From the NCBI GenBank assembly GCA_964479005.1, contig CAYZJA010000001.1, positions 192,001 through 256,000 on the forward strand: 64,000 nucleotides of DNA. Reading direction: 5' to 3'. The notes below the pieces were generated by a model. The model did no database searches, was not told where the DNA came from, and saw only the letters and a list, made by a program, of their open reading frames with translations. Every line of letters starts with the position of its first letter. The stretch's first letter is position 1. A program made the position numbers and the translations under genes. This document shows, one piece after another, positions 6,939 to 46,392 of this stretch. Source of the DNA: an uncultured Candidatus Saccharibacteria bacterium (GTDB lineage: Bacteria > Patescibacteriota > Minisyncoccia > UBA6257).

Positions 6939-8138
6939 ATGACAAAACGCAAATGGACTAAAGAAGATGACGAATATCTTATCCAACATAGTCCGAAACA
7001 ACGGGGAGATTATGGGAAGTTGGCTATCAAACTTGATAGAACAGTAGAAGCAGTGAGGTATAGGTGTAGAAATCTAAAATTGGAAAATGTCCAAAAGAAT
7101 AGTCAGGCACAGAGAACAGATGTTCCATTAGAAGATAGGATTTACGAATTGCTTTCACATTCCAAAAAACATTCTATTGAGGAGCTAAGTAATACATTTG
7201 ATATTTGTGTAGGAAAGGTTAAAGAAGCATTAGGTGTATTACAGAGCAGACGGATTTTAATAGACGCAATAGATGACAAAATTGTTTTAGGGAATACGAT
7301 TAAACCACCAAAAGCCACTCCAATTCCGATGAAGATTTATCATAATAGGTGGATTAAGTTTGGAGTAATCAGTGATACTCATTTGAACTCCAAATATCAA
7401 AGATTGGATATTTTAAACCACGCTTATAAAATCTTTCAGAAAGAAGGAGTGAAGAATGTTCTACACGCTGGGAATATTATAGATGGTTATGGTAGATTAA
7501 ATCAGTTTGATGTATTTAACATCGGGACAGAAGACCAAATCAACTATTGTATTGAAACCTATCCTTGTAAGCAAGGGATTACTACTCACTTCATTACTGC
7601 TGATGATCACGAGGGATGGATTGTAAGGAGAGAACACATTAACATCGGAGAATTACTTGAACTCAAAGCTAACAAAATGGGTAGAAAAGATTTGAAACAT
7701 TTAGGATATATTGAAAGTGATGTGTTAGTTAAAGTTGGAAGCAAACCTACAAGAATTAGAGTATTCCATCCTGGCGGAGGCACAGCATATTCTCTTTCTT
7801 ATAAACCTCAGAAGATTGTTGAGTCCTTACAGGGTGGAGAAAAACCTGATATATTATTAGTCGGACATTTTCATAAACTCGGACATTTTGAATGGCGGAA
7901 TGTGGAAGTGTTATTGACTGGTTGTATAGAAGACCAAACTCCATTTATGAGAAAGAAACATATTGCTGCTCATCTTGGTTTCTATATTGTGAAAGCCCAT
8001 ATTGCTCCTGACGGTTCTGTCAATAGATTCATTCCAGAAAAGATTAGCTATTACGATAGGAAATATTATACCAGCAGAGCTTGGAAGAAAACTCCTACCA
8101 GTTTTGAAAAACCTATTGAATGGTTTTACAAGTGGTAA
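6939..8138 (+). CDS. Myb/SANT-like HTH + winged-helix + calcineurin-like metallophosphoesterase fusion protein
   Basis: N-terminus W-x2-EDDEYL...G-x-W-x2-IA-x2-L-x-RT-x5-R (Myb-like); phosphoesterase motifs GVISDTHLN, HAGNIIDG, LLVGHFHK; strong SD AAGGAGGTG. Confidence 0.55.
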   Translation: MTKRKWTKEDDEYLIQHSPKQRGDYGKLAIKLDRTVEAVRYRCRNLKLENVQKNSQAQRTDVPLEDRIYELLSHSKKHSIEELSNTFDICVGKVKEALGVLQSRRILIDAIDDKIVLGNTIKPPKATPIPMKIYHNRWIKFGVISDTHLNSKYQRLDILNHAYKIFQKEGVKNVLHAGNIIDGYGRLNQFDVFNIGTEDQINYCIETYPCKQGITTHFITADDHEGWIVRREHINIGELLELKANKMGRKDLKHLGYIESDVLVKVGSKPTRIRVFHPGGGTAYSLSYKPQKIVESLQGGEKPDILLVGHFHKLGHFEWRNVEVLLTGCIEDQTPFMRKKHIAAHLGFYIVKAHIAPDGSVNRFIPEKISYYDRKYYTSRAWKKTPTSFEKPIEWFYKW

Positions 8139-8208
8139 GTATTCGCTCTTAAAACAAAACGGGGTGTCTTAAACACAGACACCCCTAATCTCACAGGAGG
8201 TGATTTTG

Positions 8209-8781
8209 ATGAAAATCTTAATCGATTTGGACGGAACAGTATTTGAGACTTACGACACTTTAGAAGAAAAGTTTGTCCAGAAATTTAATCGCAAAATGAA
8301 CTGGCAGGCGCTGAAAAGCGGCAAGAATCATTACTGGCAAACAGATGGGGGTAAGTGGATAGTCAAGCAATTCAAAGACCCAAACTTTTATTACAATTTA
8401 GAAACTTATCCTGATGCTCCCAAAGTGTTAAGGCAACTTGCCCGAAAACATACAATCATATATTGTACCGCGAGGAGGTTTGGATTAGAAAATGCCACCT
8501 CCTATTCGCTTGGTTATAGAAAACTGCCATTCGGGAAGGTATATTGTATTGGCAGGAGACACATTGCGGGGGTTAAAAAGAGAATTGCCTTAGATGAAAA
8601 AATTGACCTTGCTATTGATGATGAATCAAAAGTGGTAGAAAAACTTTCTGAAGTCTGTCAAGTTTTGATATTTACTCAGAATTATAATAAAGGTTGTAAA
8701 TTCGGTAAGAGAGTAAAATCTTGGAAGGAGGTGCGTCATGAATTACAAGCAAAGAAAAGAAATAATAGAACAAGCAAATAA
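8209..8781 (+). CDS. HAD-superfamily 5'(3')-deoxyribonucleotidase-like protein (NT5C family)
   Basis: MKILIDLDGTV (HAD motif I DxDGT) after SD AGGAGG; phage-type nucleotidase architecture. Confidence 0.55.
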   Translation: MKILIDLDGTVFETYDTLEEKFVQKFNRKMNWQALKSGKNHYWQTDGGKWIVKQFKDPNFYYNLETYPDAPKVLRQLARKHTIIYCTARRFGLENATSYSLGYRKLPFGKVYCIGRRHIAGVKKRIALDEKIDLAIDDESKVVEKLSEVCQVLIFTQNYNKGCKFGKRVKSWKEVRHELQAKKRNNRTSK

Positions 8782-9073
8782 AAGACGTCAATCCTTAATG
8801 CTTAATAAAGGAAAAGAATATTCAAAGGGTAATGCCGATATTAATTATAACTTTAAAGAAGTTGCTGATAGATTAGGCACTCGTCTTGCTGGAACTCCTG
8901 AATATACTTGTTTAGTTTATTTATTCAAACAGATTTTATCAATAGAGAAATGGGCAAGAGATGGAAAGTTAAGTTCAGGGGAAACAATTTTTTCAAGATT
9001 AGATGATGCCAGAAACTACATGGATATTTTAGAAAGTCTGATAAGAGAAAAATCCGATGTACAAGGAAGGTGA
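8738..9073 (+). CDS. hypothetical protein (111 aa)
   Basis: ORF with an SD-like GGAGGTG upstream; overlaps the end of the preceding gene. Confidence 0.35.
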   Translation: MNYKQRKEIIEQANKRRQSLMLNKGKEYSKGNADINYNFKEVADRLGTRLAGTPEYTCLVYLFKQILSIEKWARDGKLSSGETIFSRLDDARNYMDILESLIREKSDVQGR

Positions 9074-9220
9074 TGGTATGGAAATTCAGAATGTTTACTG
9101 TTTGATTAAGATTACTTGTGTTGTGATTATTGTAGTAGGATTTTTCGCAATTGTTCAATTACATCTTAAAAGAGAAAAGCAAAGGATACGGGATTATTAT
9201 AAAAGAGGAGGTGATAAGCG

Positions 9221-10303
9221 ATGAAAAAACTACTCGTAGTATTGATTTGTTTGTTTCTATTAGTTCCAACTGTAATTTCTGCACCAGTTGAAAGATTAAG
9301 TGTAGGAGATTTTACTCGTGCAGTAACGGCTCAGATAGTCTGTAATGTTGATGTGTATAGACGGGATTTAACCTGGTATAAGATTGAGGATGGTCAGGTG
9401 ATCCCTGAATTCAAAGATTTAGATGAAGATGACTGGGCATATCAATGGTTAAAGAAAGGCTGGTTCGTGGTATATGGCGAATGGAATACAGAACCTCGCA
9501 AAGGTAAGATAATGGGTTCTGGTGAAGTATTATATTCCTGGTTATTACCTATGGGGATTAACTTAGAAGGTAAACCTGCTGCAACTTATGTAGGCACAAA
9601 TGCCCATGTGGTAGATGTATTTATGTTAGAAGCCAGTAGGGGTTCAAGAGATAAACCATTAGACCTATATGCCGAGAAGGACACGATGAAGACAATGAAT
9701 ATGCTTAGAACGACTTATAAAGAAGAGGCTAAACCAATAGCCCAGTATTACTTTGATATAGATAACAGTTATATCACTGTAAAGACCGAAGCAGACCAAA
9801 GATTTAGAACTAAAGTTAACATCGTATTGTTTGACATAGCATTAGATTTTGCCTTATTGGAAATGGAAAATGTTTTAGGTCTGCCTTATGTGAGTTTTAG
9901 AGGCACTCCTATACAGGTTGGCGAAACGATTAAAATCTGTGGAGCACCATTAGGATTTGCTTTTAGTAGAGACGAAGGACGAGTAAGTCAAGTTCACTTA
10001 AATCTCGGAACTGATGGAGTGGAAGATTATATTGTATGGGATAACCAAGTGCGTATGGATATTGCTGCTGCACCAGGAAGTTCGGGTAGTGCGATATTTG
10101 ATAAAGATGGCTATATGATTGCCCAATTACACGGAATAATGGTTCACAACGGCAACTATATTCAAGGCGGACAATTAGCAGTAGACCAAGAAGATATAAT
10201 TCGTTTTCTGGTGTTAAATGGTTTTTCGTGGATAGTTCAAAATCCTTATGGAATTTGGGCTAACGCACCATATAATACAGTCCGACCAAAAGTAGGAGAA
10301 TAG
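9221..10303 (+). CDS. secreted trypsin-like (S1/HtrA-type) serine peptidase
   Basis: Signal peptide MKKLLVVLICLFLLVPTVISAP; catalytic-triad-like motifs GTNAHVVD (His), DFALLE (Asp), APGSSGSAIF (Ser). Confidence 0.55.
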   Translation: MKKLLVVLICLFLLVPTVISAPVERLSVGDFTRAVTAQIVCNVDVYRRDLTWYKIEDGQVIPEFKDLDEDDWAYQWLKKGWFVVYGEWNTEPRKGKIMGSGEVLYSWLLPMGINLEGKPAATYVGTNAHVVDVFMLEASRGSRDKPLDLYAEKDTMKTMNMLRTTYKEEAKPIAQYYFDIDNSYITVKTEADQRFRTKVNIVLFDIALDFALLEMENVLGLPYVSFRGTPIQVGETIKICGAPLGFAFSRDEGRVSQVHLNLGTDGVEDYIVWDNQVRMDIAAAPGSSGSAIFDKDGYMIAQLHGIMVHNGNYIQGGQLAVDQEDIIRFLVLNGFSWIVQNPYGIWANAPYNTVRPKVGE

Positions 10304-10536
10304 AAATGAGAATTAACGCAGAGGGGGCTTACCTTGATGGTTTCTAAAAGTCCCCCTCCAGCTGTATGGAGGTGATTAAGATGAGGTGGTTATTACTCAC
10401 ATTTGCAATATCTACTATCATATCTTTTGTAGGATTTGTGAATTGTAAAATGGAAAAGGAGAAAGATTGGTTTATTGCGTTATTGGTTTCTGCAACATTA
10501 GTTGTATTGATGTTTGTTGAATTATCTTAGGGGGAG

Positions 10537-10893
10537 GTGATAGAGATGAAGAAACGAAGAAAAAAGCAAAAAGTTAAGAGAGAAGTTTTAAAGAAAATTG
10601 TTAGAGAGAAAAAGGTTTGTTATTTCTGTGGAACTACCGAGAATATAACCGAGCATCACATAATTTTTAAGTGTTTCATTAAAGGCGGAGAGTTACCAAA
10701 TAACAAGAAAGACATTTGTGATAAGTGCCACAAGCAGTTTCATAAATTAGCAAAACCTGTTGTGGATTTACTCTTATCGGTAATTCAAGGATTACAACCG
10801 AAACCAACTCGGAAAATAGGATTCATAAGAACGAACAACAAAGGAGGCGAAAGAAATGAGAAACATAAAAAGATGTCTATTGTTCTATCCTGA
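10537..10893 (+). CDS. HNH-type zinc-finger nuclease-like protein
   Basis: CYFCG...EHHIIF...CDKCHKQFH (C-x2-C...HH...C-x2-C-H). Confidence 0.5.
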   Translation: MIEMKKRRKKQKVKREVLKKIVREKKVCYFCGTTENITEHHIIFKCFIKGGELPNNKKDICDKCHKQFHKLAKPVVDLLLSVIQGLQPKPTRKIGFIRTNNKGGERNEKHKKMSIVLS

Positions 10894-23109: not shown

Positions 23110-24066
23110 ATGAAAAAGAACCAAAAACCAATCCCCTGTCATTTATCTGATTTTTTAGATTGGTTAGATATTGAAAAAGGTTTATCTTCTAAATCCCAGG
23201 AAAATTATAATAGATTTTTAAAAAAATTTTTAGATTGGTTAAAATCAAATAATTTAGAGGGTTTAAAGCCTCATGAATTAACTACTGATCATGTTTGGAA
23301 ATATCGGGTTTTCCTCTCGCGCCGATATCTTCCTAAAACGAAAACACCCCTTAAAAAAACAACTCAAAATTATTATTTAATAGCTTTAAGGTCCTTTTTG
23401 AATTATTTTGCTGATAGAGATATTTTGTCTTTACCATCTGAAAAGATAAAATTAGCTAAAGATAGAGATGAAAAACAAGTTAGTTTTTTAAATTTAGAGC
23501 AATTAGAGAAATTATTTTCAGCTCCTGACACTTCTAAAAAGCAAGAATTGCGGGACAGAGCTATTTTAGAGGTTTTATTCTCTACTGGTATGAGGATAGC
23601 AGAATTAGTTTCATTAAACCGGGATCAAATTAAAATAAATCCTGGAATAAAAGAATTAGAAGTTGGGATTATTGGCAAAGGGAAAAAACTACGAACTGTT
23701 TATTTCTCTGAAAGAGCTCTATCTTGGTTATCTAAATACTTTAAAACCCGAAATGATGATGAAAAAGCGTTATTTATCAATTATAGAAGCAGGAAAGGAG
23801 CGCCACGGAGATTAACTCCACGTTCAATTGAAAAAAATATGAAAAAATATGTGATTATGTCAGGGGTTCCAATAACAACTACTCCTCACGCCATGCGCCA
23901 TACTTTTTCGACAGATCTTTTAAATCAAGGCGTGGATTTAAAAATACTCCAGGAATTTCTTGGCCACAAAAGCATTGCCGCTACACAAATTTACGCGCAT
24001 GTTACGAGTAAAAAACTTCGTGAGGTACATCGGAAATTTCACAGTGGCCGTAAATTAAAAACATAA
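23110..24066 (+). CDS. tyrosine site-specific recombinase (XerC/XerD / phage integrase family)
   Basis: N-terminal SAM-like domain; catalytic region HAMRHTFSTDLL...LGHKSIAATQIYAHV (R-H-R-Y signature). Confidence 0.8.
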   Translation: MKKNQKPIPCHLSDFLDWLDIEKGLSSKSQENYNRFLKKFLDWLKSNNLEGLKPHELTTDHVWKYRVFLSRRYLPKTKTPLKKTTQNYYLIALRSFLNYFADRDILSLPSEKIKLAKDRDEKQVSFLNLEQLEKLFSAPDTSKKQELRDRAILEVLFSTGMRIAELVSLNRDQIKINPGIKELEVGIIGKGKKLRTVYFSERALSWLSKYFKTRNDDEKALFINYRSRKGAPRRLTPRSIEKNMKKYVIMSGVPITTTPHAMRHTFSTDLLNQGVDLKILQEFLGHKSIAATQIYAHVTSKKLREVHRKFHSGRKLKT

Positions 24067-24129: not shown

Positions 24130-24336
24130 CTACATTTTATTTTCAATCAATCTTAGAATTCTTTTCCATTTCTCAAAATTCTTATTAATAACTTTTGAAA
24201 TTTTTTTCCAATCTTCAGGGGATGGCTCACGTATGCCCTTTTTTGGTTCCCCTAAAAAGATTTCCCCTGTTTTTGTATCACAAACAATATCATCTCCATT
24301 TTCTAATTTACCTATTTCTTCCCAATTAGCCATCAT
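24130..24336 (-). CDS. hypothetical small protein (68 aa)
   Basis: 11-nt overlap with the upstream gene suggests translational coupling. Confidence 0.35.
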   Translation of the reverse strand: MMANWEEIGKLENGDDIVCDTKTGEIFLGEPKKGIREPSPEDWKKISKVINKNFEKWKRILRLIENKM

Positions 24337-24649
24337 TTTTCACCTCTTCGATAATTTTATCAATCTTTAATCTATCATTAGGTACAAGATCTTTCATTTT
24401 GAGACCGAAAACCTCATTAATTACGCGAGTAAGGATGTTTTCTAGATTTTCATTTACTTTTTCCTCTAATTCTTTTATTTGTCTCAGTAGGCCGTCAATC
24501 TCGATGTCTTTATGGATGTTTTTAGCTTCCAGCTCAGACCATAGATTCTCAAAATAAGATTTAATGGCTATGTCTAGCAGGTCTTTTTGGGTATCTGATA
24601 GATAGTTACAATTCCAAATAAAATCAATAAGTTTTTCCCTGAGAGTCAT
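24326..24649 (-). CDS. hypothetical acidic coiled-coil protein (107 aa)
   Basis: ORF; operon with its neighbours. Confidence 0.35.
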   Translation of the reverse strand: MTLREKLIDFIWNCNYLSDTQKDLLDIAIKSYFENLWSELEAKNIHKDIEIDGLLRQIKELEEKVNENLENILTRVINEVFGLKMKDLVPNDRLKIDKIIEEVKNDG

Positions 24650-25121: not shown

Positions 25122-26303
25122 ATGAGAATAAGTTATTCCAGTTTAGAGAATTTTAAACAGTGTCCTCTAAAATATAAGTTTTCTAATATAGATAAAATAA
25201 AAGAGCCTAAAAGCAAAGAGGCTATTTTTGGCACTTATATTCATAAAGTTCTGAAATGGTTTTATCAAAAAGATCCACACTTCCCTACTCTTGATGCTTT
25301 ATTAAAGTATTATCGTGATTATTGGCCTAGAAAAACAGAAGGATTTGAATGGAAAGATCCTGAAGAAGAAAAATCTTATTTCAAAGAGGGGTTAAGAATA
25401 TTAGAAGAATTTTATAAGAAAAATATTCCACATAAAACATCTATTTTGGATTTAGAAACAAGGTTTGAAGTTGTTATTGATGAAAATCCTAATAAACCAA
25501 ATGGCAAGCATATTTTAACAGGCGTAATAGATAGAATAGATAAATTACCAGATGATACAATTGAAATAATTGATTATAAAACAGGAAAAAGAATGCCTTC
25601 TCAAAAAGCTTTAGATAAAAATGATCAACTTTCTCTTTACGCTATTGGATTAAAAAGCCGTTGGCCAAGAACTAAAATTGAAGATTTACGCCTAAGCTTA
25701 TATTTTCTTAAGTTCAATGAAAGAATAAATACCAAAAGAACAGAAAAAGACTTGGAAGAAGCAAAAGATAAAATAATAAATTTAATTCATCGAATAGAAA
25801 AAAGCGATTTTGAACCTCATTCTTCAGCATTATGTGGTTGGTGCGGTTATCGTAATATTTGTCCAATTTGGCGGCATTTTTATGAAGACGAGGAAAGCAA
25901 TCATTTAAATGATATAGATATTAAAGAAAAAATAGATAAATACTTTGTTTTAAAAAAAGAAAAAGAAAAATTAGAACAAGAATTATTAGAATTAAAGAAT
26001 TTAATTGATGTTTATTGTCATCAAAAAGGATTAAAGCGCGTATTTGGTGAAAATGGTTATTTTAGCCATACTGTTTATAACAAAGTTTCTTATGATATTC
26101 CTAAATTAAAAGAAATTTTAGAGCCATTGGAAAAATGGGAAGATATTATTGAAATTAATGCTAAAAAATTAAAAAAGGTTTTAAAAGAGATACCTGCTGA
26201 TTTGAGGGAAAAAATAAAAGAAACAGAAAAAATAGAAGAAAAATTTAAATACTTATCCACCAACCATATAAGCAAAAAAGAAATCAAAGAGCAACTGCCT
26301 TAG
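25122..26303 (+). CDS. PD-(D/E)XK nuclease family protein with a Cas4/AddB-like 4Fe-4S cysteine cluster
   Basis: N-terminal ISYSSLENFKQCPLKYKF; D...ExK core GVIDRIDKLPDDTIEIIDYKTGK; C-terminal CGWCGYRNIC. ATG at 25122 is preferred over TTG at 25110. Confidence 0.65.
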   Translation: MRISYSSLENFKQCPLKYKFSNIDKIKEPKSKEAIFGTYIHKVLKWFYQKDPHFPTLDALLKYYRDYWPRKTEGFEWKDPEEEKSYFKEGLRILEEFYKKNIPHKTSILDLETRFEVVIDENPNKPNGKHILTGVIDRIDKLPDDTIEIIDYKTGKRMPSQKALDKNDQLSLYAIGLKSRWPRTKIEDLRLSLYFLKFNERINTKRTEKDLEEAKDKIINLIHRIEKSDFEPHSSALCGWCGYRNICPIWRHFYEDEESNHLNDIDIKEKIDKYFVLKKEKEKLEQELLELKNLIDVYCHQKGLKRVFGENGYFSHTVYNKVSYDIPKLKEILEPLEKWEDIIEINAKKLKKVLKEIPADLREKIKETEKIEEKFKYLSTNHISKKEIKEQLP

Positions 26304-30232: not shown

Positions 30233-30790
30233 ATGGGACATCGTATATTTATTGCTTCACATTTACCAAATGATGTTAAGAAAATCTTTTTAGATTATCA
30301 ACAAAAGAAACTCCACAATTTTGGTTTTCGGCTTATACCTGAGCAGGCCTTACATTTAACATTGGTCTTTATTGGATATGTTAGTAATGATAATATATTG
30401 AAAATTAATAAAGCTTGTCAAAATATTGCTTCCTTGTTCTTTCCAATAGAGGTTAAATTAAATAAAATAACTTATGGTCCAAATCCACACTCCCCTCGCC
30501 TAATTTGGGCAGAAGGCGAAATTTCAAAGAATTTAGACAAACTTCATAAAGCATTAGAAAATGAATTAATGGACCAGGGAATAAATTTTAAAATAGAAAA
30601 TCGTTTATTCAAACCCCATGTTACTTTAGCGCGCTTCCAAAATGAAACAAAACCACCACGTCTATCAGAACTGGAAGAAAAAATTAATAAATCTTTTGTA
30701 ATTAATTCCATATCTATTATAGAGAGCGAATTAAGTCGTTCAGGACCACAATATACGGATTTAGCCACATATACATTAAATTTTAAATAA
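30233..30790 (+). CDS. thpR: RNA 2',3'-cyclic phosphodiesterase / 2'-5' RNA ligase (2H phosphoesterase, LigT/ThpR)
   Basis: Two H-x-T-x motifs: HLTLVFIG and HVTLARF. Confidence 0.75.
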   Translation: MGHRIFIASHLPNDVKKIFLDYQQKKLHNFGFRLIPEQALHLTLVFIGYVSNDNILKINKACQNIASLFFPIEVKLNKITYGPNPHSPRLIWAEGEISKNLDKLHKALENELMDQGINFKIENRLFKPHVTLARFQNETKPPRLSELEEKINKSFVINSISIIESELSRSGPQYTDLATYTLNFK

Positions 30791-31626
30791 TGTTTATTAT
30801 TAACGTAATTCCATTGACTAATATTCCAAGGCCTCAACCACAAATTTTTTCTTATTTTTATAAGTCGGATTTAATAAAAGGATCTATTGTTGAAATACCT
30901 TTAAGACGCAGGAATGTAATGGCAATAGTGTTGAATTCAGCGTCTGTGTCTTCAAAAAAAGCAACCTTAAAAAAGGCTGATTTTGTTTTAAAACCAATAA
31001 ATAAAGTTATCTCTTCAAGGCAGATAGTTCCACCATTATTTTTTTCTTTAGCAGATTTTATCTCTCGTTATTATTTTTATCCAATTTCGTTGTGTTTGAA
31101 AATTATTTTACCACGTCGCATGAAATCTTTAATAAATTATGTAGAAAAACTAGAAAAAGATTTTCCAAAATATTTTGATCCATCAGTTTCAAAGACAAAA
31201 AAAGATAAAATAGAAAAAATAGGTTCCTACAATTTTTCTGATGTTATTAAAAAAATAAAGGCAAATCTTAAAAACAAAAAACAGGTGTTAATTCTCGTTC
31301 CAACTATTTTCTATCAAAATTATTATTTTACTAAATTATCATCTAAAATCTCTATACCAATTTTTATTTCCTCAAATGATTTAAAAATTAAAGAATTTAA
31401 TTCTTTATGGACAAAAATTAATTCTCAGGAAGCGCAATTAATTATAGGACGGCGTTCTTCTCTGTTTCTGCCATGGCAAAATTTAGGACTTATAATTGTA
31501 GTGGATGGAAGCAATAATTCTTATAAATCGTGGAATCAAAAACCTTATTATAACGCCGCTTTTCTTATTAACTATTTAGCTTTGTATTATAATACTTCAA
31601 TTATTTACTATAATGCCTGTTATTAA
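30790..31626 (+). CDS. priA: primosomal protein N' (PriA) N-terminal part: 3'BD/WH plus a degenerate helicase lobe 1
   Basis: Aligns to E. coli PriA up to motif II, but Walker A GSGKT is replaced by GSYNF and DEEH by VDGS; QVLILVP and LIIGRRSSLFLP are conserved. Confidence 0.6.
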   Translation: MFIINVIPLTNIPRPQPQIFSYFYKSDLIKGSIVEIPLRRRNVMAIVLNSASVSSKKATLKKADFVLKPINKVISSRQIVPPLFFSLADFISRYYFYPISLCLKIILPRRMKSLINYVEKLEKDFPKYFDPSVSKTKKDKIEKIGSYNFSDVIKKIKANLKNKKQVLILVPTIFYQNYYFTKLSSKISIPIFISSNDLKIKEFNSLWTKINSQEAQLIIGRRSSLFLPWQNLGLIIVVDGSNNSYKSWNQKPYYNAAFLINYLALYYNTSIIYYNACY

Positions 31627-32710
31627 AATTATTGATCTAAAAAAGGTTAGAAAAGAGAAAAAACTATTTCAGGCTATTTCTCCTGATGCTTTTATTGAAA
31701 TTCAAAAAGCCCTAAAAAAAAGAAAAAGGATTATTATTTTTATTAACAGAAGGGGGTTAGCAACAAGCATTATATGCCAGGAATGTGGTTTTGTATTTAA
31801 ATGCCCAAATTGTGATATCCCCTTGGGGTTTCATAATAAATCTAAGCTTATTTGTCATCATTGTAATTATAATGTTTCTATACCACCAGTTTGTCCTTCT
31901 TGCAGGGGCTATAAGCTTAAAGCTTTGGGAATTGGTATTGAGAGAATTGCTGAAGAAATTAAAAAATTTATTATTCCAACGCCTATTTTTATGTTAATCG
32001 AAGGGGAAACTTCTGATGAACAAAAATCAGATATTTTCGATAAATTTAATCGAGGAGATATTAAAATATTAATAGGGACTGAAGCTCTTTTAAACCCTCA
32101 ATTAAAAGCTGCCCATTTAGTAATAGTGGCTTCTGTTGATCCTGCGCTTTTCTTACCAGATTATTATAGCGAGGAAAGAGTGTTTTTAAACCTTTTAAAA
32201 CTAAAAGCTTTGTCTAAAGAAAGATTAATAATACAGACATTAATTCCTGAGAATAAATTATTCCAATATCTTATAAAAAACGAAGGAAAAAAATTTCTAC
32301 AAGAAGAAAAAAGATGGCGAAAAGATTATCTTTGGCCTCCCTATGTTCAATTAATAAAATTGACACTTTCTGACAAAGATCAAAAAAAGGGGGTGAAAGA
32401 AGCTGAAGAAACAAAAAGAAATTTAGAGCAAGCCATAAATAAGTTAATTCCAGAAAACCATCAAAAAGATTTTATTATTTTAGGACCTGCGCAAGCCTTT
32501 GTTTTTAAAGAAAAAAGCTTTTATAAATGGAATATTTTGGTAAAATATAAGTACTTTGAAAGTAAAATTAAAGAAGAGATTAACTCTTTGTTAGGACTCA
32601 ATTTACTTTCACCTGTTTTAACTAAAAAAGAATTAATGCTCAGAAATAAAATTTTAAAATACGTTCCTTTAAACTGGAAAATTGATGTTGATCCAATAAA
32701 TATATTGTAA
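31613..32710 (+). CDS. priA: PriA C-terminal part: Cys-rich zinc-binding region, helicase lobe 2 and CTD; separate frame with a 14-nt overlap
   Basis: IIIFINRRGLAT, CQECGFVFKCPNCD...CHHCNY...CPSC (CRR zinc fingers), ILIGTEALL; motif VI is degenerate (KLKALSKERL). Confidence 0.65.
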   Translation: MPVIKIIDLKKVRKEKKLFQAISPDAFIEIQKALKKRKRIIIFINRRGLATSIICQECGFVFKCPNCDIPLGFHNKSKLICHHCNYNVSIPPVCPSCRGYKLKALGIGIERIAEEIKKFIIPTPIFMLIEGETSDEQKSDIFDKFNRGDIKILIGTEALLNPQLKAAHLVIVASVDPALFLPDYYSEERVFLNLLKLKALSKERLIIQTLIPENKLFQYLIKNEGKKFLQEEKRWRKDYLWPPYVQLIKLTLSDKDQKKGVKEAEETKRNLEQAINKLIPENHQKDFIILGPAQAFVFKEKSFYKWNILVKYKYFESKIKEEINSLLGLNLLSPVLTKKELMLRNKILKYVPLNWKIDVDPINIL

Positions 32711-32753: not shown

Positions 32754-33224
32754 ATGGAAATACTTACTGGAGAAAATAATAAAACCTTAAGACAAAAAAG
32801 CCTTCCTGTGAAGCATATTAACACAAATGTGCGTAGTTTGATTGAACAGATGAAAGATGTGGTAAGACAAAATAATGGAGTAGGATTAGCGGCAATTCAG
32901 ATAGGAGAACCTACTCGCATTATTATTTGTGAAATAGACGATAAGTTTTATACTTTTATTAATCCTGAAATCATAAAGTTTTTTCCAGAAACTTCAGTAA
33001 TGGAAGAAGGCTGTTTAAGCTTGCCAAATATTTATGGTGAGGTAGAAAGACCAAAAAAAATATCTCTAAAAGCCATTAATTTTGACGGCAAAAAGATAAA
33101 AATGAAAGCTTTTGGTTTATTAGCGAGAGTAATTCAACATGAATTAGATCATCTTGATGGTGTGCTCTTTATTGATAAAGCAAAAAATATAACAAAACAA
33201 ATACGAAAAACAGCAGCTCTATAA
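32754..33224 (+). CDS. def: peptide deformylase
   Basis: GVGLAAIQIG, EGCLSLP, HELDHLDG. Confidence 0.85.
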   Translation: MEILTGENNKTLRQKSLPVKHINTNVRSLIEQMKDVVRQNNGVGLAAIQIGEPTRIIICEIDDKFYTFINPEIIKFFPETSVMEEGCLSLPNIYGEVERPKKISLKAINFDGKKIKMKAFGLLARVIQHELDHLDGVLFIDKAKNITKQIRKTAAL

Positions 33225-33228
33225 AATT

Positions 33229-34167
33229 ATGCGCTTTATATTCTTTGGTTCATCTAAATTTGCAGAAATAATACTTAATAAACTTCTTAAATCTGATATG
33301 AAGCCAGTTTTAGTAGTAACTACTCCACCCAAACCAAAAGGGAGGAAAAAAATTCTTTCCCCTACCCCTGTTTATAATTTAGCTAAACAAAATAATATCC
33401 CTGTACTTACACCAGAAAAATTAGAAGACGAAGAGTTTTTATCAACTTTTAAAGATTATAATCCGGACTTAGTGATTCTTACTGCTTATGGAAAGATTAT
33501 TCCTTCAAAATTGCTATCAATTCCCAAAAAAGGAGTTCTGAATCTTCATCCGTCCCTCCTCCCCAAATGGCGCGGAGCTACTCCTATTCAATCAACTATT
33601 TTAGCAGGTGATAATGAAACAGGCGTTACCTTATTTTTAATGGATGAAGAAATAGATCACGGACCAATAATACAAGATGCAAAATACAAGATACAAGATA
33701 CAAGAATCATTTATCCGGAGTTAAGTAAAGAATTGGCAGAATTAGGAGTAGATCTTATAATCAAAACTGTACCACTGTGGTTTGAAGGAAAAATTAAACC
33801 AATGCCGCAAAATCATTCTTTAACAAGTTATTGCCATAAAATTTTACCTAAAGATGAAAAAATAAATTGGGAAAAATCATCTATAGAAATAGATAGAAAA
33901 GTAAGAGCTTTAAATCCTAAACCAGGCGTTTTTACCATAGCGAATGATATAATTATCAAGATAGTTAAAGGTTATCCAATAGATGATCCAACTCTTTATA
34001 CTGATAAGCCAGTGGGTTCTATTTTTCAATTTCAAGATAAATTGGCAGTTAAATGTGGCAAAGGGATTTATATCATTGAAGAATTAAAACCAGCAGGAAA
34101 AAACACGATGAATAGCGAAAGTTTCTTAAGGGGTAATAAATGGATATTAGAGATTAAATTATTATAA
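33229..34167 (+). CDS. fmt: methionyl-tRNA formyltransferase
   Basis: MRFIFFGSS...; formyltransferase core NLHPSLLPKWRGATPIQ. Confidence 0.85.
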   Translation: MRFIFFGSSKFAEIILNKLLKSDMKPVLVVTTPPKPKGRKKILSPTPVYNLAKQNNIPVLTPEKLEDEEFLSTFKDYNPDLVILTAYGKIIPSKLLSIPKKGVLNLHPSLLPKWRGATPIQSTILAGDNETGVTLFLMDEEIDHGPIIQDAKYKIQDTRIIYPELSKELAELGVDLIIKTVPLWFEGKIKPMPQNHSLTSYCHKILPKDEKINWEKSSIEIDRKVRALNPKPGVFTIANDIIIKIVKGYPIDDPTLYTDKPVGSIFQFQDKLAVKCGKGIYIIEELKPAGKNTMNSESFLRGNKWILEIKLL

Positions 34168-38692: not shown

Positions 38693-39235
38693 TTATATCA
38701 TAGAAAATTCACACCCGCAGTATCTTTGACGATAAAGGTGATATTTTTTGGAAAGTTTTAAGCCAAGCCCGTATGCTTTATTAAAATCTATATCAAACCT
38801 TTTATATTTAATTTTATATTTATTTGCTAAAGATTTGCCATATTTATTAATAAATTCTGTATTTTTAAAGCGATTTACGTTTAAAGTAGTAGTAAATTCA
38901 TCAAAATTATTTTTTTTGGCAAATTTAACGGTTTCTTCCAAACGAAAACGAAAACAACTTAGACACCTTTCGCTGTTTTCTGAATAAAATTCAGGCAATT
39001 GAGGCAATGATTTTTTAACATAATCTAACCACTTACTGTGTTCATATCCTCCTATAATCAATTTTAACCTATAAATTTCAGATATTTTTTCCACATCTTT
39101 TAATCTTTTTTCATATTCTCCTTGAGGATAAATATTAGGATTATAAAAATACAAAGTAATATCTTTTACTTTTTCTCTTAATAAATATTCAATTATTGGC
39201 AATGCGCACACAGCGCAACAAGTATGAAGAAGCAT
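38693..39235 (-). CDS. queH: epoxyqueuosine reductase QueH (DUF208)
   Basis: MLLHTCCAVCA N-terminal motif and C-terminal CGCEFS; adjacent to tgt/queA. Confidence 0.7.
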   Translation of the reverse strand: MLLHTCCAVCALPIIEYLLREKVKDITLYFYNPNIYPQGEYEKRLKDVEKISEIYRLKLIIGGYEHSKWLDYVKKSLPQLPEFYSENSERCLSCFRFRLEETVKFAKKNNFDEFTTTLNVNRFKNTEFINKYGKSLANKYKIKYKRFDIDFNKAYGLGLKLSKKYHLYRQRYCGCEFSMI

Positions 39236-39359
39236 AAAATCAAATTAACAATTAACACAGAACAATTAATAATTAATTAAGCAATAATAAGGCGAGAAGA
39301 TGTTGTTGAAAAAACGATAACGATTAGCGTGTTTTTGAGATAATATCTTCTCGCCTTTA

Positions 39360-40481
39360 CTATCTATTTGCCATCCGTAATGTTTCTATTAGTCTCATCA
39401 TAAATCTTAAATTATGAATACTTGCTAAACGCAAATAAAGAGACTCTTTAACTGAATATAAGTGATGAAGGTAGGCTCTGGAAAAATTTTGACAAGTATA
39501 ACAATCACAGTTTTTATCAATAGGATTGTTATCATTCTCAAAGCGGTTGTTAGATATTCTTAAACATCCTTTTTCAAATTCTGACTCAAAACTATAGAGA
39601 GAACCATGCCGAGCTGTTCTTGTTGGTGCAACACAATCAAACATATCAACTCCCCTTTTTACAACTTCGATTATATCATAAGGTGAAGCGCCTAATCCCA
39701 TAGTATAGCGAGGTTTATTTTCTGGTAAAAAATCCTGCAAATAATCTAAAATCTCTAATGTTTTTGGCATATTATAACCAATTGTTTCTCCACCTAATGC
39801 GATTCCATCAAAAGGAAGACTGGTAATAAACTTGGTTGATTCTTTTCTTAAATCTTCAAAAATTCCTCCTTGAATAATTCCGAAAATCAAAGGCGGTTTT
39901 TGTCCTAAGCTTATACATTTTTTACTAAGTTCTTGATGTTTTTTTAATGACCTTTCTGCCCAGCGATGAGTTCTTTCCATTGATTTTTTCGCGTATTCTT
40001 TGTTATCAGAATCAGGACTGCATTCATCAAAAGCCATAATAATATCACAACCTAATTTATGTTGAATTTCTATTGATTTTTCAGGTGTAATTAGATGTTT
40101 TGACCCGTCAATTGGGGATGAAAATTCTACACCATTTTCACTGATTTTAGCTAACTTCTGCCCTTCTTTTGCTCTATTTTTAGCAAAGCTCCATACTTGA
40201 AACCCTCCAGAATCGCTCAGAATAGGCCCAGACCAGCCCATAAATCGATGAATGCCTCCTTGAGCATTAATTAGATCTTCCCCTGGCTGTAAGTGTAAAT
40301 GAAGCGTATTAACCAAGAGTATCTCTATACCAATTTTACTTAAATCATCAGGCCCAACTGCTTTAACAGTTGCTTGAGTTCCAGGCGGCATAAAAATTGG
40401 TGTTTTTACAATATCATGATTTGTTGATATTTCGCCCAAACGAGCTCTATCAACCTTAGATTTTTTAATAATTTTAAACAT
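39360..40481 (-). CDS. tgt: queuine tRNA-ribosyltransferase
   Basis: FMPPGTQATVK, DSGGFQV, zinc site CDCYTCQ...H. Confidence 0.85.
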   Translation of the reverse strand: MFKIIKKSKVDRARLGEISTNHDIVKTPIFMPPGTQATVKAVGPDDLSKIGIEILLVNTLHLHLQPGEDLINAQGGIHRFMGWSGPILSDSGGFQVWSFAKNRAKEGQKLAKISENGVEFSSPIDGSKHLITPEKSIEIQHKLGCDIIMAFDECSPDSDNKEYAKKSMERTHRWAERSLKKHQELSKKCISLGQKPPLIFGIIQGGIFEDLRKESTKFITSLPFDGIALGGETIGYNMPKTLEILDYLQDFLPENKPRYTMGLGASPYDIIEVVKRGVDMFDCVAPTRTARHGSLYSFESEFEKGCLRISNNRFENDNNPIDKNCDCYTCQNFSRAYLHHLYSVKESLYLRLASIHNLRFMMRLIETLRMANR

Positions 40482-40483
40482 AA

Positions 40484-41569
40484 TTATACGATAAACATTG
40501 CGTCTCCAAACGAGAAGAATCTATATTTTTTTACAATAGCTTCTTGATAAACTTTTAAAATTAAATCTCTATCAGCAACCACGTTAAACGTGGTATCAGT
40601 CGCGTTAAACGCGACAAAAGCGGAAACCAACATTAATAAAGTGGACTTAGGAAGGTGAAAATTCGTAATCAAAGAGTCAACAAACTTAAATTTATATCCA
40701 GGATAAATAAATAAATTTGTTTGATCTCGTTTCGGTTTTAATTCTAAGCTTTCATCTACACAACTTTCTAAAACACGAGCTGCAGTAGTTCCAACAGCAA
40801 TAATCCTCTTGCCCTCTGATTTTGACTTATTAAGTATTTTAGCAGTATCTTTAGAAAGTTCAAAAAATTCAGAATGCATTTGATGTTTTGTAATGTCTTG
40901 CGATTTTACTGATAAAAAAGTTCCCAATCCTATATGTAAAGTAATAAATTGCATATCAATCCCCTTTTCTTCAATTTTTTTTAAAAGGTTTTTTGTAAAA
41001 TGAAACCCTGCAGTAGGAGCGGCAATTGAGCCTTCTTTTTCTGCATAAATTGTTTGATACTCTAAAAATGATCTTTCAGTAGGCTCGGTAATATAAGGCG
41101 GTAAGGGAAATTGCCCTAAAGATAAAGCCTCCTGTTTTAAATCCTCACCTTCCATATTAAAACATATGATTCTTTCATAATTTAAAACCTCTTTTATCTC
41201 CCCCTTTAATAATTTACTAAATTCAATAATTTGCCCTTGTTTTAATTGAGGTTTCCCAATAATTACCCATCGTTTAGGCCATGAGATAAAATCAAAAATT
41301 TCTTTATTCTCAGGCCGAATAAGAAGAATTTCCGCTTTTCCATGGCTTGGAATTTTCTTTCCATATAAACGTGCTGGTACTACTTTACTATTATTAAATA
41401 CTAAAACATCATTATCAGACAAATAATCTAATATCTCATAGAATTTTCTATGTTCTATTTTTTTACTTTTTCTATCTAATATTAAAAGACGCGAGTGATC
41501 TCGCGGCTCTATTGGTTCCTGAGCAATAAGCTCTTTTGGTAAATGATAATCAAAAAGCGAAATATCCAT
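40484..41569 (-). CDS. queA: S-adenosylmethionine:tRNA ribosyltransferase-isomerase
   Basis: MDISLFDYHLPKELIAQEPIEPRDHSRLLIL. Confidence 0.85.
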   Translation of the reverse strand: MDISLFDYHLPKELIAQEPIEPRDHSRLLILDRKSKKIEHRKFYEILDYLSDNDVLVFNNSKVVPARLYGKKIPSHGKAEILLIRPENKEIFDFISWPKRWVIIGKPQLKQGQIIEFSKLLKGEIKEVLNYERIICFNMEGEDLKQEALSLGQFPLPPYITEPTERSFLEYQTIYAEKEGSIAAPTAGFHFTKNLLKKIEEKGIDMQFITLHIGLGTFLSVKSQDITKHQMHSEFFELSKDTAKILNKSKSEGKRIIAVGTTAARVLESCVDESLELKPKRDQTNLFIYPGYKFKFVDSLITNFHLPKSTLLMLVSAFVAFNATDTTFNVVADRDLILKVYQEAIVKKYRFFSFGDAMFIV

Positions 41570-45768: not shown

Positions 45769-46026
45769 CTACCATTTTGTCCACCTTTTTTTAATCAATC
45801 CAAACATTCCAATAATCAATCCCGAAATAAGTAAAGTTATAAAAACTTTTAGGCTAGTGGCAAAAAAGAATAATATAAAGATTGTAATTAATACAATTAA
45901 TATAATTTCGTTGCTTTTTACTCTTTTTTGATCTGCCACTATATCCATTACTGATTTACTTCTCAATTTATTCTTATCGCCTAAGTCGCTAAATGAAATT
46001 AAATTTTGCCATTTTATTCTTTTCAT
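45769..46026 (-). CDS. small membrane protein (85 aa, 2 TM)
   Basis: ORF; hydrophobic core IILIVLITIFILFFFATSLKVFITLLISGLIIGMFGLI. Confidence 0.45.
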   Translation of the reverse strand: MKRIKWQNLISFSDLGDKNKLRSKSVMDIVADQKRVKSNEIILIVLITIFILFFFATSLKVFITLLISGLIIGMFGLIKKRWTKW

Positions 46027-46032
46027 TTCTTC

Positions 46033-46392
46033 TCACTCTCCTTTTTTCTTTATTTTTATTTTTTCATCAATAGCTTTTCTTAAATGAGGTCTTATTATTT
46101 TATAGACATTATCCAAATCTAAACTATCAATTTTCACTATTTTTATATTGGAACAAAATTGTAGCGAAAATAAGTCTTTTACCTCTAACCAACCAGATGT
46201 CCTGGGACCATTTCTTGGTCCAAGCTCTTCTGTTTTACCCCTTTTACGATAAAGATAAGAAATTAAATCACAATTAAACAAATATGGAATCTGGCTATCT
46301 GTGTCAAGCTCAATTACAATAAGATTACAGACCATGCGCTTTCCATTCAATTTTCCATTGAATCGAATTACCCAATAAAATTTCATCATTTC
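46033..46392 (-). CDS. hypothetical soluble protein (about 119 aa), first gene of the small-peptide operon
   Basis: The ATG after SD GAAGGAG gives MMKFYWVIRFNGKLNGKR...; the ORF track extends it to 46425. Confidence 0.4.
   Translation of the reverse strand, partial: EMMKFYWVIRFNGKLNGKRMVCNLIVIELDTDSQIPYLFNCDLISYLYRKRGKTEELGPRNGPRTSGWLEVKDLFSLQFCSNIKIVKIDSLDLDNVYKIIRPHLRKAIDEKIKIKKKGE

Follow-up and report, generated by a model that had tools for sequence, protein, structure and literature searches.

A priA gene naturally split between its RecA-like lobes and lacking ATPase motifs probably encodes a two-subunit fork-binding and helicase-loading platform

In a 64,000-nucleotide stretch of contig CAYZJA010000001.1 (assembly GCA_964479005.1, positions 192,001 to 256,000; hereafter the window, G+C approximately 30%), from an uncultured bacterium of the Patescibacteriota (Minisyncoccia; UBA6257) deposited as Candidatus Saccharibacteria, the replication restart protein PriA is encoded by two overlapping open reading frames (ORFs). 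ORF1 (priA-N, 30790-31626, + strand, 278 aa) encodes the 3' DNA-binding domain (3'BD) and RecA-like lobe 1, and ORF2 (priA-C, 31613-32710, + strand, 365 aa) encodes lobe 2 from its first strand (VIKIIDL) onward, the zinc-binding Cys-rich region (CRR) and the C-terminal domain (CTD). Both halves are real, separately conserved ORFs, and the locus is likely to represent a functional priA whose product acts as a two-subunit, ATP-independent platform for fork binding and helicase loading, a function that we deduce from conservation and from precedents in E. coli and Deinococcus. A reading of the sequence alone had recognized at 30790-32710 a PriA homologue split over two frames with a 14-nt overlap, which is borne out by Pfam, TIGR00595 and solved-structure matches, and had left two options for it, i.e., a pseudogene or a DNA-binding and loader platform. 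The pseudogene option is refuted by intact ORFs across the clade and by ratios of nonsynonymous to synonymous substitution (dN/dS) of 0.13-0.32; the platform option is favored, as motif pattern, recurrence and selection agree.

Profile and structure matches assign both ORFs to PriA. When compared with TIGR00595 (priA, NCBIfam), ORF1 covers model positions 15-133 and ORF2 positions 166-496 (ORF2 E 1.2e-66), with positions 134-165 unmatched by either; the scores were 66.6 and 225.4 bits, respectively, against an equivalog cut-off of 230.35 that their simple sum exceeds. Pfam places the 3'BD at 30823-31113 (+; ORF1 residues 12-108; PriA_3primeBD, PF17764, E 2.9e-13), the CRR, with four CxxC pairs that form two zinc sites, at 31775-31903 (+; ORF2 residues 55-97; PF18319, E 7.2e-7), and the S10-like CTD, extending up to the conserved IDVDP, at 32339-32710 (+; PriA_C, PF18074, E 6.1e-11). 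These three domains and motif Ia (QVLILVP) had all been named in the sequence-only reading, and Pfam and alignment confirm their presence. ORF1 had no Pfam match to PF00270 or PF04851, and the Pfam match of ORF2 to PF00271 was under the cut-off. The only significant solved-structure relatives of ORF1 and ORF2 were PriA entries (4NL4, 6DGD, 6DCR, and 8FAK).

For motif comparisons, the pair was aligned with PriA from E. coli (NC_000913) and with P0047, a canonical relative. ORF2 has the full set of eight CRR cysteines, and the 3'BD pocket has retained Y18 and K61 of E. coli PriA. In the alignment with E. coli PriA, priA-N has no winged-helix domain. The opening strand of ORF2, VIKIIDL, aligns with E. 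coli IQHVLDL, and the pair lacks approximately 26 E. coli residues that follow motif III and make up the final helix and strand of lobe 1, in good agreement with the roughly 25 missing linker residues originally estimated; relative to the nearest full-length orthologues, in which this linker is already shortened, the gap is only about 10-20 residues. An argument based on SSB-pocket residues numbered W82, Y86, K370, R697, and Q701 was dropped, as this numbering did not match the E. coli sequence indices.

Structure predictions were made with AlphaFold2 (AF2) from family alignments, for single chains only, and both halves are predicted to fold as the matching parts of PriA. The ORF1 model (mean pLDDT 91, pTM 0.86) has its best PDB matches in PriA 8FAK, 4NL8 and 6DCR (TMq 0.72-0.75), and the ORF2 model (mean pLDDT 84, pTM 0.80), in which confidence dips solely in the zinc region, has its best matches in PriA chains as well (TMq 0.55-0.62). 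The top match was to PriA in both cases (E 1.8e-15 and TMq 0.75 for ORF1; E 4.8e-23 and TMq 0.62 for ORF2), and for both halves PriA ranked far above Mfd or UvrB among the PDB matches. In the ORF1 model, the first strand of lobe 1 (143-146) and helix 149-161 are joined by two residues only, which indicates that the P-loop is missing there, and the final strand of the model (270-274) is the one that bears motif III in canonical PriA.

With regard to the helicase motifs, the sequence-only reading that all ATPase motifs are degenerate holds for motifs I, II, III, and VI, but motifs Ia, Ib, IIa (the aromatic-rich loop, ARL), IV, IVa, and most of V are intact. The Walker A (motif I) remnant at 31222-31236 (+) reads GSYNF in place of GSGKT, as previously noted, and is separated from motif Ia by 20 residues, exactly as in E. 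coli; this position is variable in the split family, where the majority sequence is FSNDF. The motif II (Walker B) remnant at 31504-31515 (+) reads DGSN in place of DEEH, so that the loss of this motif stands, although the earlier assignment of VDGS was one residue out of register; in the family, D or E is retained, the position of the catalytic Glu is occupied by G, A, S, or P, and the other positions vary. SAT(P) of motif III aligns with NACY, in a region that varies among family members in both sequence and length. At motif VI (32192-32227, +; LLKLKALSKERL), a 5-residue deletion and loss of the arginine fingers were found, with QVAGRAGRAGK aligning with KLKALSKE as first read; the arginines are also missing family-wide.

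By contrast, the intact motifs are strongly conserved in the split family. The motif IIa/ARL segment at 31519-31557 (+; SYKSWNQKPYYNA) is nearly invariant, its residues Y, K, S, W, D, Q, P, Y, and N each being conserved in at least 38 of 41 sequences, and motifs Ia (VLILVPT), Ib (IGRRS), IIa/ARL (SYKSWDQKPYYN), IV (FINRRGLA), IVa (LGIGxER) and most of V (LIGTEALLRPQL) are invariant or nearly so. The CTD motifs WPPY, LGPAxAF, and IDVDP are conserved, and, among the zinc ligands, C55, C58, C64, C67, C81, C94, and C97 are invariant and C84 nearly invariant. In sequence terms, degeneracy is thus limited to motifs I, II, III, and VI, which serve nucleotide binding and coupling; surfaces that touch DNA have accordingly been kept, and surfaces that bind nucleotide have not. 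In PriA, crosslinking places the ARL at the fork junction, and single-stranded DNA, double-stranded DNA, and forks are all bound by the CTD (PMC5778457).

The loss of ATPase motifs extends well beyond the split family. In the full-length proteins P0039 and P0040, Walker A and motif VI are already gone and motif II is degenerate (DEYN and EPFH, respectively); the full-length orthologues P0041 and P0113 also lack Walker A and motif VI, as do more distant Patescibacteria PriAs (P0042, P0043, P0046, P0051, P0054, and P0060). In a pattern search of 138 full-length proteins, comprising the best HMMER representatives and full-length relatives, both Walker A and motif VI were missing in 92, and all three canonical motifs were found in 38. 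Names are available for a few motif-less representatives only, and these are assigned to Parcubacteria or Patescibacteria; how broadly the loss is distributed among taxa is judged from this pattern search and from nameless metagenomic proteins. Motif loss thus appears widespread in full-length Patescibacteria PriAs, and, because full-length orthologues with the same synteny already lack the motifs, it predates fission. Alignment with related genomes, as had been proposed, therefore finds the motifs degenerate across the split family, in its full-length orthologues, and in many other Patescibacteria PriAs; what is new relative to the sequence-only reading is that ATPase loss preceded the split and reaches far beyond it and that several close relatives have re-fused the gene in frame. 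PriA helicase activity is said to be conserved "except in Deinococcus" (PMC5778457), and we found no relevant literature on PriA in Patescibacteria, the candidate phyla radiation (CPR), or Parcubacteria, nor on this motif loss.

The split itself recurs in more than 40 diverged loci. The window is identical over 7.1 kb to contigs of JGI sample 3300008517 and Logan SRR3085416; a third contig (551 kb, JGI sample 3300028837) departs from it at 1 nt. Clustering at 90% identity yielded 38 clusters of the C half (355-381 aa, 93% to 45% identical) and 40 clusters of the N half (mostly 260-294 aa), and searches with each half returned full-length proteins only at 40% identity or below. In all seven diverged loci retrieved by exact protein look-up, the two halves are adjacent, in the order ligT, priA-N, priA-C, def, fmt; the same synteny is seen in P0039 (627 aa) and P0040 (639 aa), the full-length relatives that are closest, and the ligT-priA-def-fmt order is common to the split-pair loci and the full-length orthologue loci L014 and L015. 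This shared synteny identifies the split pair as the orthologue of the single priA. Among approximately 9,900 PriA-like clusters (E up to 1e-10) in a 50%-identity library, no more than two representatives (P0016 and P0112) were clearly split, indicating that the split clade is narrow. Three further candidates for independent splits, P0129, P0208, and P0247, were rejected, as they have a canonical motif VI, P0208 starts with Val, and they are most likely contig-end fragments. Named members of the split clade are annotated as Pacebacteria, Paceibacterota, Parcubacteria, or Minisyncoccia. A scan of genome contigs with one protein yielded three close loci. One GTDB-representative genome with a 90%-identical split priA (L011, CAZUBI010000001.1) is titled "uncultured Candidatus Saccharibacteria bacterium", a label that is probably wrong given that every other relative with a name belongs to the Parcubacteria, Paceibacteria, or Minisyncoccia.

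Selection on both halves was estimated by the Nei-Gojobori method (NG86), comparing the window with relatives at 63-93% identity. The dN/dS was 0.19-0.32 for priA-N and 0.125-0.17 for priA-C, as compared to 0.07-0.24 for def, 0.20-0.34 for fmt, and 0.11-0.32 for ligT; both halves are under purifying selection, within the range of the flanking genes. Within the window, ligT (2'-5' RNA ligase/phosphoesterase family; 30233-30790, +) lies immediately upstream, its stop overlapping the priA-N start by one base (TAATG, 30788-30792), and def (peptide deformylase) and fmt (methionyl-tRNA formyltransferase) follow downstream (32754-34167, +), an arrangement that suggests a single compact operon made up of ligT, priA-N, priA-C, def, and fmt. 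Linkage of ligT to priA is kept clade-wide and in the full-length orthologues, and the synteny with def and fmt marks the locus as the orthologous priA locus.

At the junction, ORF2 is shifted to the +1 frame with respect to ORF1, and the two share the 14 nt ATGCCTGTTATTAA (31613-31626, +), a dual-coding overlap in which the ATG of ORF2 falls within the ORF1 codons AAT-GCC and the TAA of ORF1 falls within the ORF2 codons ATT-AAA; translation of PriA-C probably initiates at this overlap, either coupled or independently, and the "aATGcc" start context recurs in most of the split relatives examined. A metagenome scan covering 79 loci identified several variants of this arrangement, including a 32-nt overlap in the +1 frame (17 loci, among them nearly all deep branches), a 14-nt overlap (16 loci as well as the window), overlaps of 11 nt (4 loci), 23 nt (2 loci), and 17 nt (1 locus), a 2-nt gap with ORF2 in the +2 frame (L004, L022, and L023), and a single in-frame ORF in six close relatives. 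Identity of the fused relatives is 88% (L018), 85-87% (L019, L020, L021, and L052), and 78% (L024). L019, L020, L021, and L052 have a 26-nt insertion after TATTAT, resulting in the linker YY-EPKVNNKVL-MPVIKIIDL; in L024 the linker is EPKVLPIT and the ATG of ORF2 is gone (Met to Thr), and L018 has a repeated 35-aa linker, such that the new linkers span 8-35 aa. In a neighbor-joining (NJ) tree of C halves, rooted on full-length orthologues, the 32-nt overlap is ancestral, the 14-nt overlap is derived, and the fused forms branch within the crown group, at two or three positions, an order of events that is provisional, as this is a distance tree without support values. The priA junction thus appears to be an indel hotspot that drifts by insertions and deletions and is sometimes re-fused, and we count the in-frame re-fusions inside the split clade as favoring the view that the halves work as one unit.

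Some further observations concern the re-fused loci. The 26-nt insertion was found only at the L018, L019, L021, and L052 junctions and, when searched for as a dispersed repeat, nowhere in the window or in other fetched DNA. The re-fusing sequence (1895-1995 in L018; 1974-1998 in L019, L021, and L052) is comparatively G+C-rich for these genomes and contains the short inverted repeat GAACC...GGTTC; in L018 it is enlarged into internal direct repeats (GAACCGAAGGT, CGCGAAACGAGGTTCTTATTATGA). In the fused L019, residues ~118-140 of the N half form a low-complexity repeat (EQSEKQGSVERSEKQGSERSEGS) just upstream of the former Walker A, replacing the linker after the 3'BD at the place of the missing winged-helix domain, a further sign of an unconstrained region.

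The pair shares with canonical PriA, as known from E. coli and K. pneumoniae (4NL4, 6DGD, and 8FAK), the order of 3'BD, lobe 1, lobe 2 with an inserted eight-cysteine CRR, and CTD, as well as motifs Ia, Ib, ARL, IV, IVa, and V and the priA-def-fmt neighborhood; it differs in consisting of two polypeptides, in the absence of the winged helix, Walker A, the motif II Glu, motif III, and motif VI, and in the deletion of the last helix and strand of lobe 1 described above. Among its close counterparts are the full-length motif-less Patescibacteria PriAs (e.g., P0039, P0040, P0113, and P0118), which are orthologous, share the ligT-priA-def-fmt order, and have likewise lost Walker A and motif VI and kept ARL, CRR, and CTD, but are single chains of 600-690 aa with a short inter-lobe linker of approximately 16-23 residues. 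D. radiodurans PriA has no ATPase or helicase activity and still binds forks and DnaB (PMC4504706); as in the window, the catalytic Walker A and B residues have been lost and the gene has been retained. While PriA of Deinococcus-Thermus is a single chain with a recognizable P-loop (GKT to GRT), the window pair has lost the P-loop, has a deletion in motif VI, and is encoded by a split gene; judged by sequence, it is more degenerate than the Deinococcus pseudohelicase and is naturally split between the RecA lobes. ATPase loss in Patescibacteria is probably independent of that in Deinococcus-Thermus, as the lineages are unrelated. That PriA tolerates fission is also evident from E. coli, in which PriA in two segments, isolated as a suppressor of priA2::kan, is almost fully functional (PMC5778457); that laboratory split, however, is artificial, lies in the winged-helix linker (residues 154/157), and leaves the ATPase intact, whereas the split in the window is natural, ancient, and inter-lobe. 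Finally, E. coli PriA K230R, which lacks ATPase activity, supports restart via the PriA-PriB pathway, and in single-chain PriA the 3'BD packs tightly on the helicase domain, with CTD, 3'BD, and lobe 1 forming a pocket for the SSB tail (PMC5778457).

Taken with these precedents, the two-subunit platform could operate as follows. PriA-C would be translated from its own ATG inside the 3' end of priA-N, by coupled or independent initiation, and the two chains would pair non-covalently through the 3'BD/lobe 1/CTD interface known from single-chain PriA. The complex would recognize abandoned forks and D-loops via the 3'BD, the ARL, motifs Ia, Ib, IV, IVa, and V, and the CTD, and would recruit the replicative helicase, directly or via SSB, without ATP hydrolysis or DNA unwinding, as E. 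coli PriA K230R and the D. radiodurans pseudohelicase seem to do. Once ATP-driven motion between the lobes had been lost, the covalent hinge (motif III together with the terminal helix and strand of lobe 1) would have become dispensable; since a hinge is needed by a motor and not by a scaffold, fission, as well as re-fusion with unrelated linkers, would be tolerable after ATPase loss.

A number of other explanations were weighed against this platform. A decaying pseudogene, i.e., a priA inactivated by a frameshift whose motifs degenerated under relaxed selection, could account for the two frames, the lost catalytic motifs, the missing linker segment, and the fact that each ORF alone scores under the TIGR00595 equivalog cut-off, but is highly improbable, given that both ORFs are intact in dozens of lineages from 93% to approximately 45% identity, that their dN/dS equals that of essential neighbors, that DNA-binding motifs and zinc ligands are invariant, and that both folds are confidently predicted. 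Even less credible, to the point of being negligible, is a sequencing or assembly indel in what is truly a single ORF: while L018-L021, L024, and L052, which are close relatives, do have single ORFs, the same junction occurs in three separately recorded contigs, 16 further loci have the 14-nt geometry and 17 that are more diverged have the 32-nt geometry, and the fused relatives are set apart by a specific insertion of at least 26 nt rather than by a homopolymer slip. The artefact that the sequence-only reading had asked to exclude is thus excluded by the shared junction in separate contigs and by the split in dozens of diverged loci.

A programmed +1 ribosomal frameshift within the overlap, which would yield a single full-length PriA polypeptide, would be in keeping with the +1 frame and overlap seen in nearly all members and with single-chain versions that are evidently functional in relatives. 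We nevertheless consider it very unlikely: no common slippery or stimulatory motif is apparent at the junctions (no formal search was made), the overlap varies from 11 to 32 nt, and in L004, L022, and L023 the ORF1 stop lies ahead of the ORF2 ATG, with ORF2 in the +2 frame. Moreover, the split forms hardly vary at Met1 and Pro2 of ORF2, with this ATG-Pro start being lost in the fused L024, and ORF2 residues P2, I6, I7, and K10, which a shift near the ORF1 stop would bypass, are conserved. The ORF2 frame is also closed 4-12 codons upstream of its ATG. The variable geometry, the +2 variant, the Met-Pro start, the L024 ATG loss, and the closed upstream frame all argue for independent or coupled initiation of ORF2. 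As 58 of the 72 ORFs in the window, both priA halves included, have AT-rich leaders without a Shine-Dalgarno site, the absence of one before ORF2 is normal here. A further alternative is that the halves have sub- or neofunctionalized and no longer form PriA jointly, with, e.g., the N half serving as a 3'-end binder and the C half as a zinc/CTD DNA-binding factor elsewhere; the separate polypeptides without ATPase motifs and the somewhat faster evolution of the N half (dN/dS 0.19-0.32 versus 0.13-0.17) would fit this scenario, which is unlikely given that the halves invariably lie side by side, in collinear order and with an overlap, in the ancestral priA-def-fmt locus, that they have been re-fused in frame in several lineages, and that the conserved surfaces are the fork surfaces of PriA.

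Several points weigh against the two-subunit platform. Asp17 of the 3'BD pocket is replaced by Ser, and loss of the last helix and strand of lobe 1 might affect the stability of PriA-N or the SSB-binding pocket. Chain association, fork binding, and helicase recruitment are all steps that we infer; a second, canonical priA could in principle lie elsewhere in the genome, and DnaB and a loader are presumed partners. In addition, the order of junction states, taken from the simple distance tree without support values, is provisional.

On a broader scale, a large part of the Patescibacteria appears to retain PriA as a DNA-binding scaffold only, and one clade has split it between the motor lobes. 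We are evenly divided between belief and doubt as to a more far-reaching proposal, namely that PriA ATPase loss is a broad and ancient trait of Patescibacteria/CPR rather than a peculiarity of Deinococcus and that it freed the hinge in one Paceibacteria/Minisyncoccia clade, giving rise to an obligate two-subunit, ATP-independent fork-recognition adaptor that switches repeatedly between split and fused states. If true, this would represent a natural experiment showing that restart needs the PriA architecture and neither the motor nor chain continuity. Canonical, motor-dead, motor-dead and split, and re-fused PriAs together provide a natural separation-of-function set with which to ask what parts of PriA are needed for restart, and the observations bear on fork restart in minimal-genome episymbionts. 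For annotation, paired ORFs of approximately 280 and 370 aa at such loci are not pseudogenes.

Other features of the window were also recorded. An Rfam scan of the window found one tRNA and nothing else. A PD-(D/E)XK nuclease with DUF7376 (25122-26303, +) lies 4.5 kb upstream of priA and, in L009 (3397-4560), directly downstream of priA-def; this protein may be a recombination or repair nuclease loosely tied to the priA neighborhood. A tyrosine recombinase (XerC/D- or phage-integrase-like; 23110-24066, +) is followed by a small ORF with a strong Shine-Dalgarno site and no Pfam match (24326-24649, -), a region that could represent chromosome dimer resolution or a mobile-element boundary. Shine-Dalgarno-like sites (GGAG/GAGG/AGGA, many of them GGAGGTG) precede 14 of the 72 ORFs, with most housekeeping genes having none; such sites are at 6939-10893 (+), 13433, 24326 (-), 37663, 45769-46389 (-), 48504 (-), and 49838 (-). 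Five ORFs with strong sites are grouped at 6.9-10.9 kb, where G+C is 0.33-0.36 as compared to 0.29-0.30 elsewhere; four match a metallophosphoesterase, an NT5C deoxynucleotidase, a trypsin-like peptidase, and an HNH endonuclease (weakly, below the cut-off), the fifth has no Pfam match, and the cluster may be a horizontally acquired or phage-derived island. Finally, the queuosine genes queH, tgt, and queA are clustered at 38693-41569 (-), which is notable in a reduced-genome organism.

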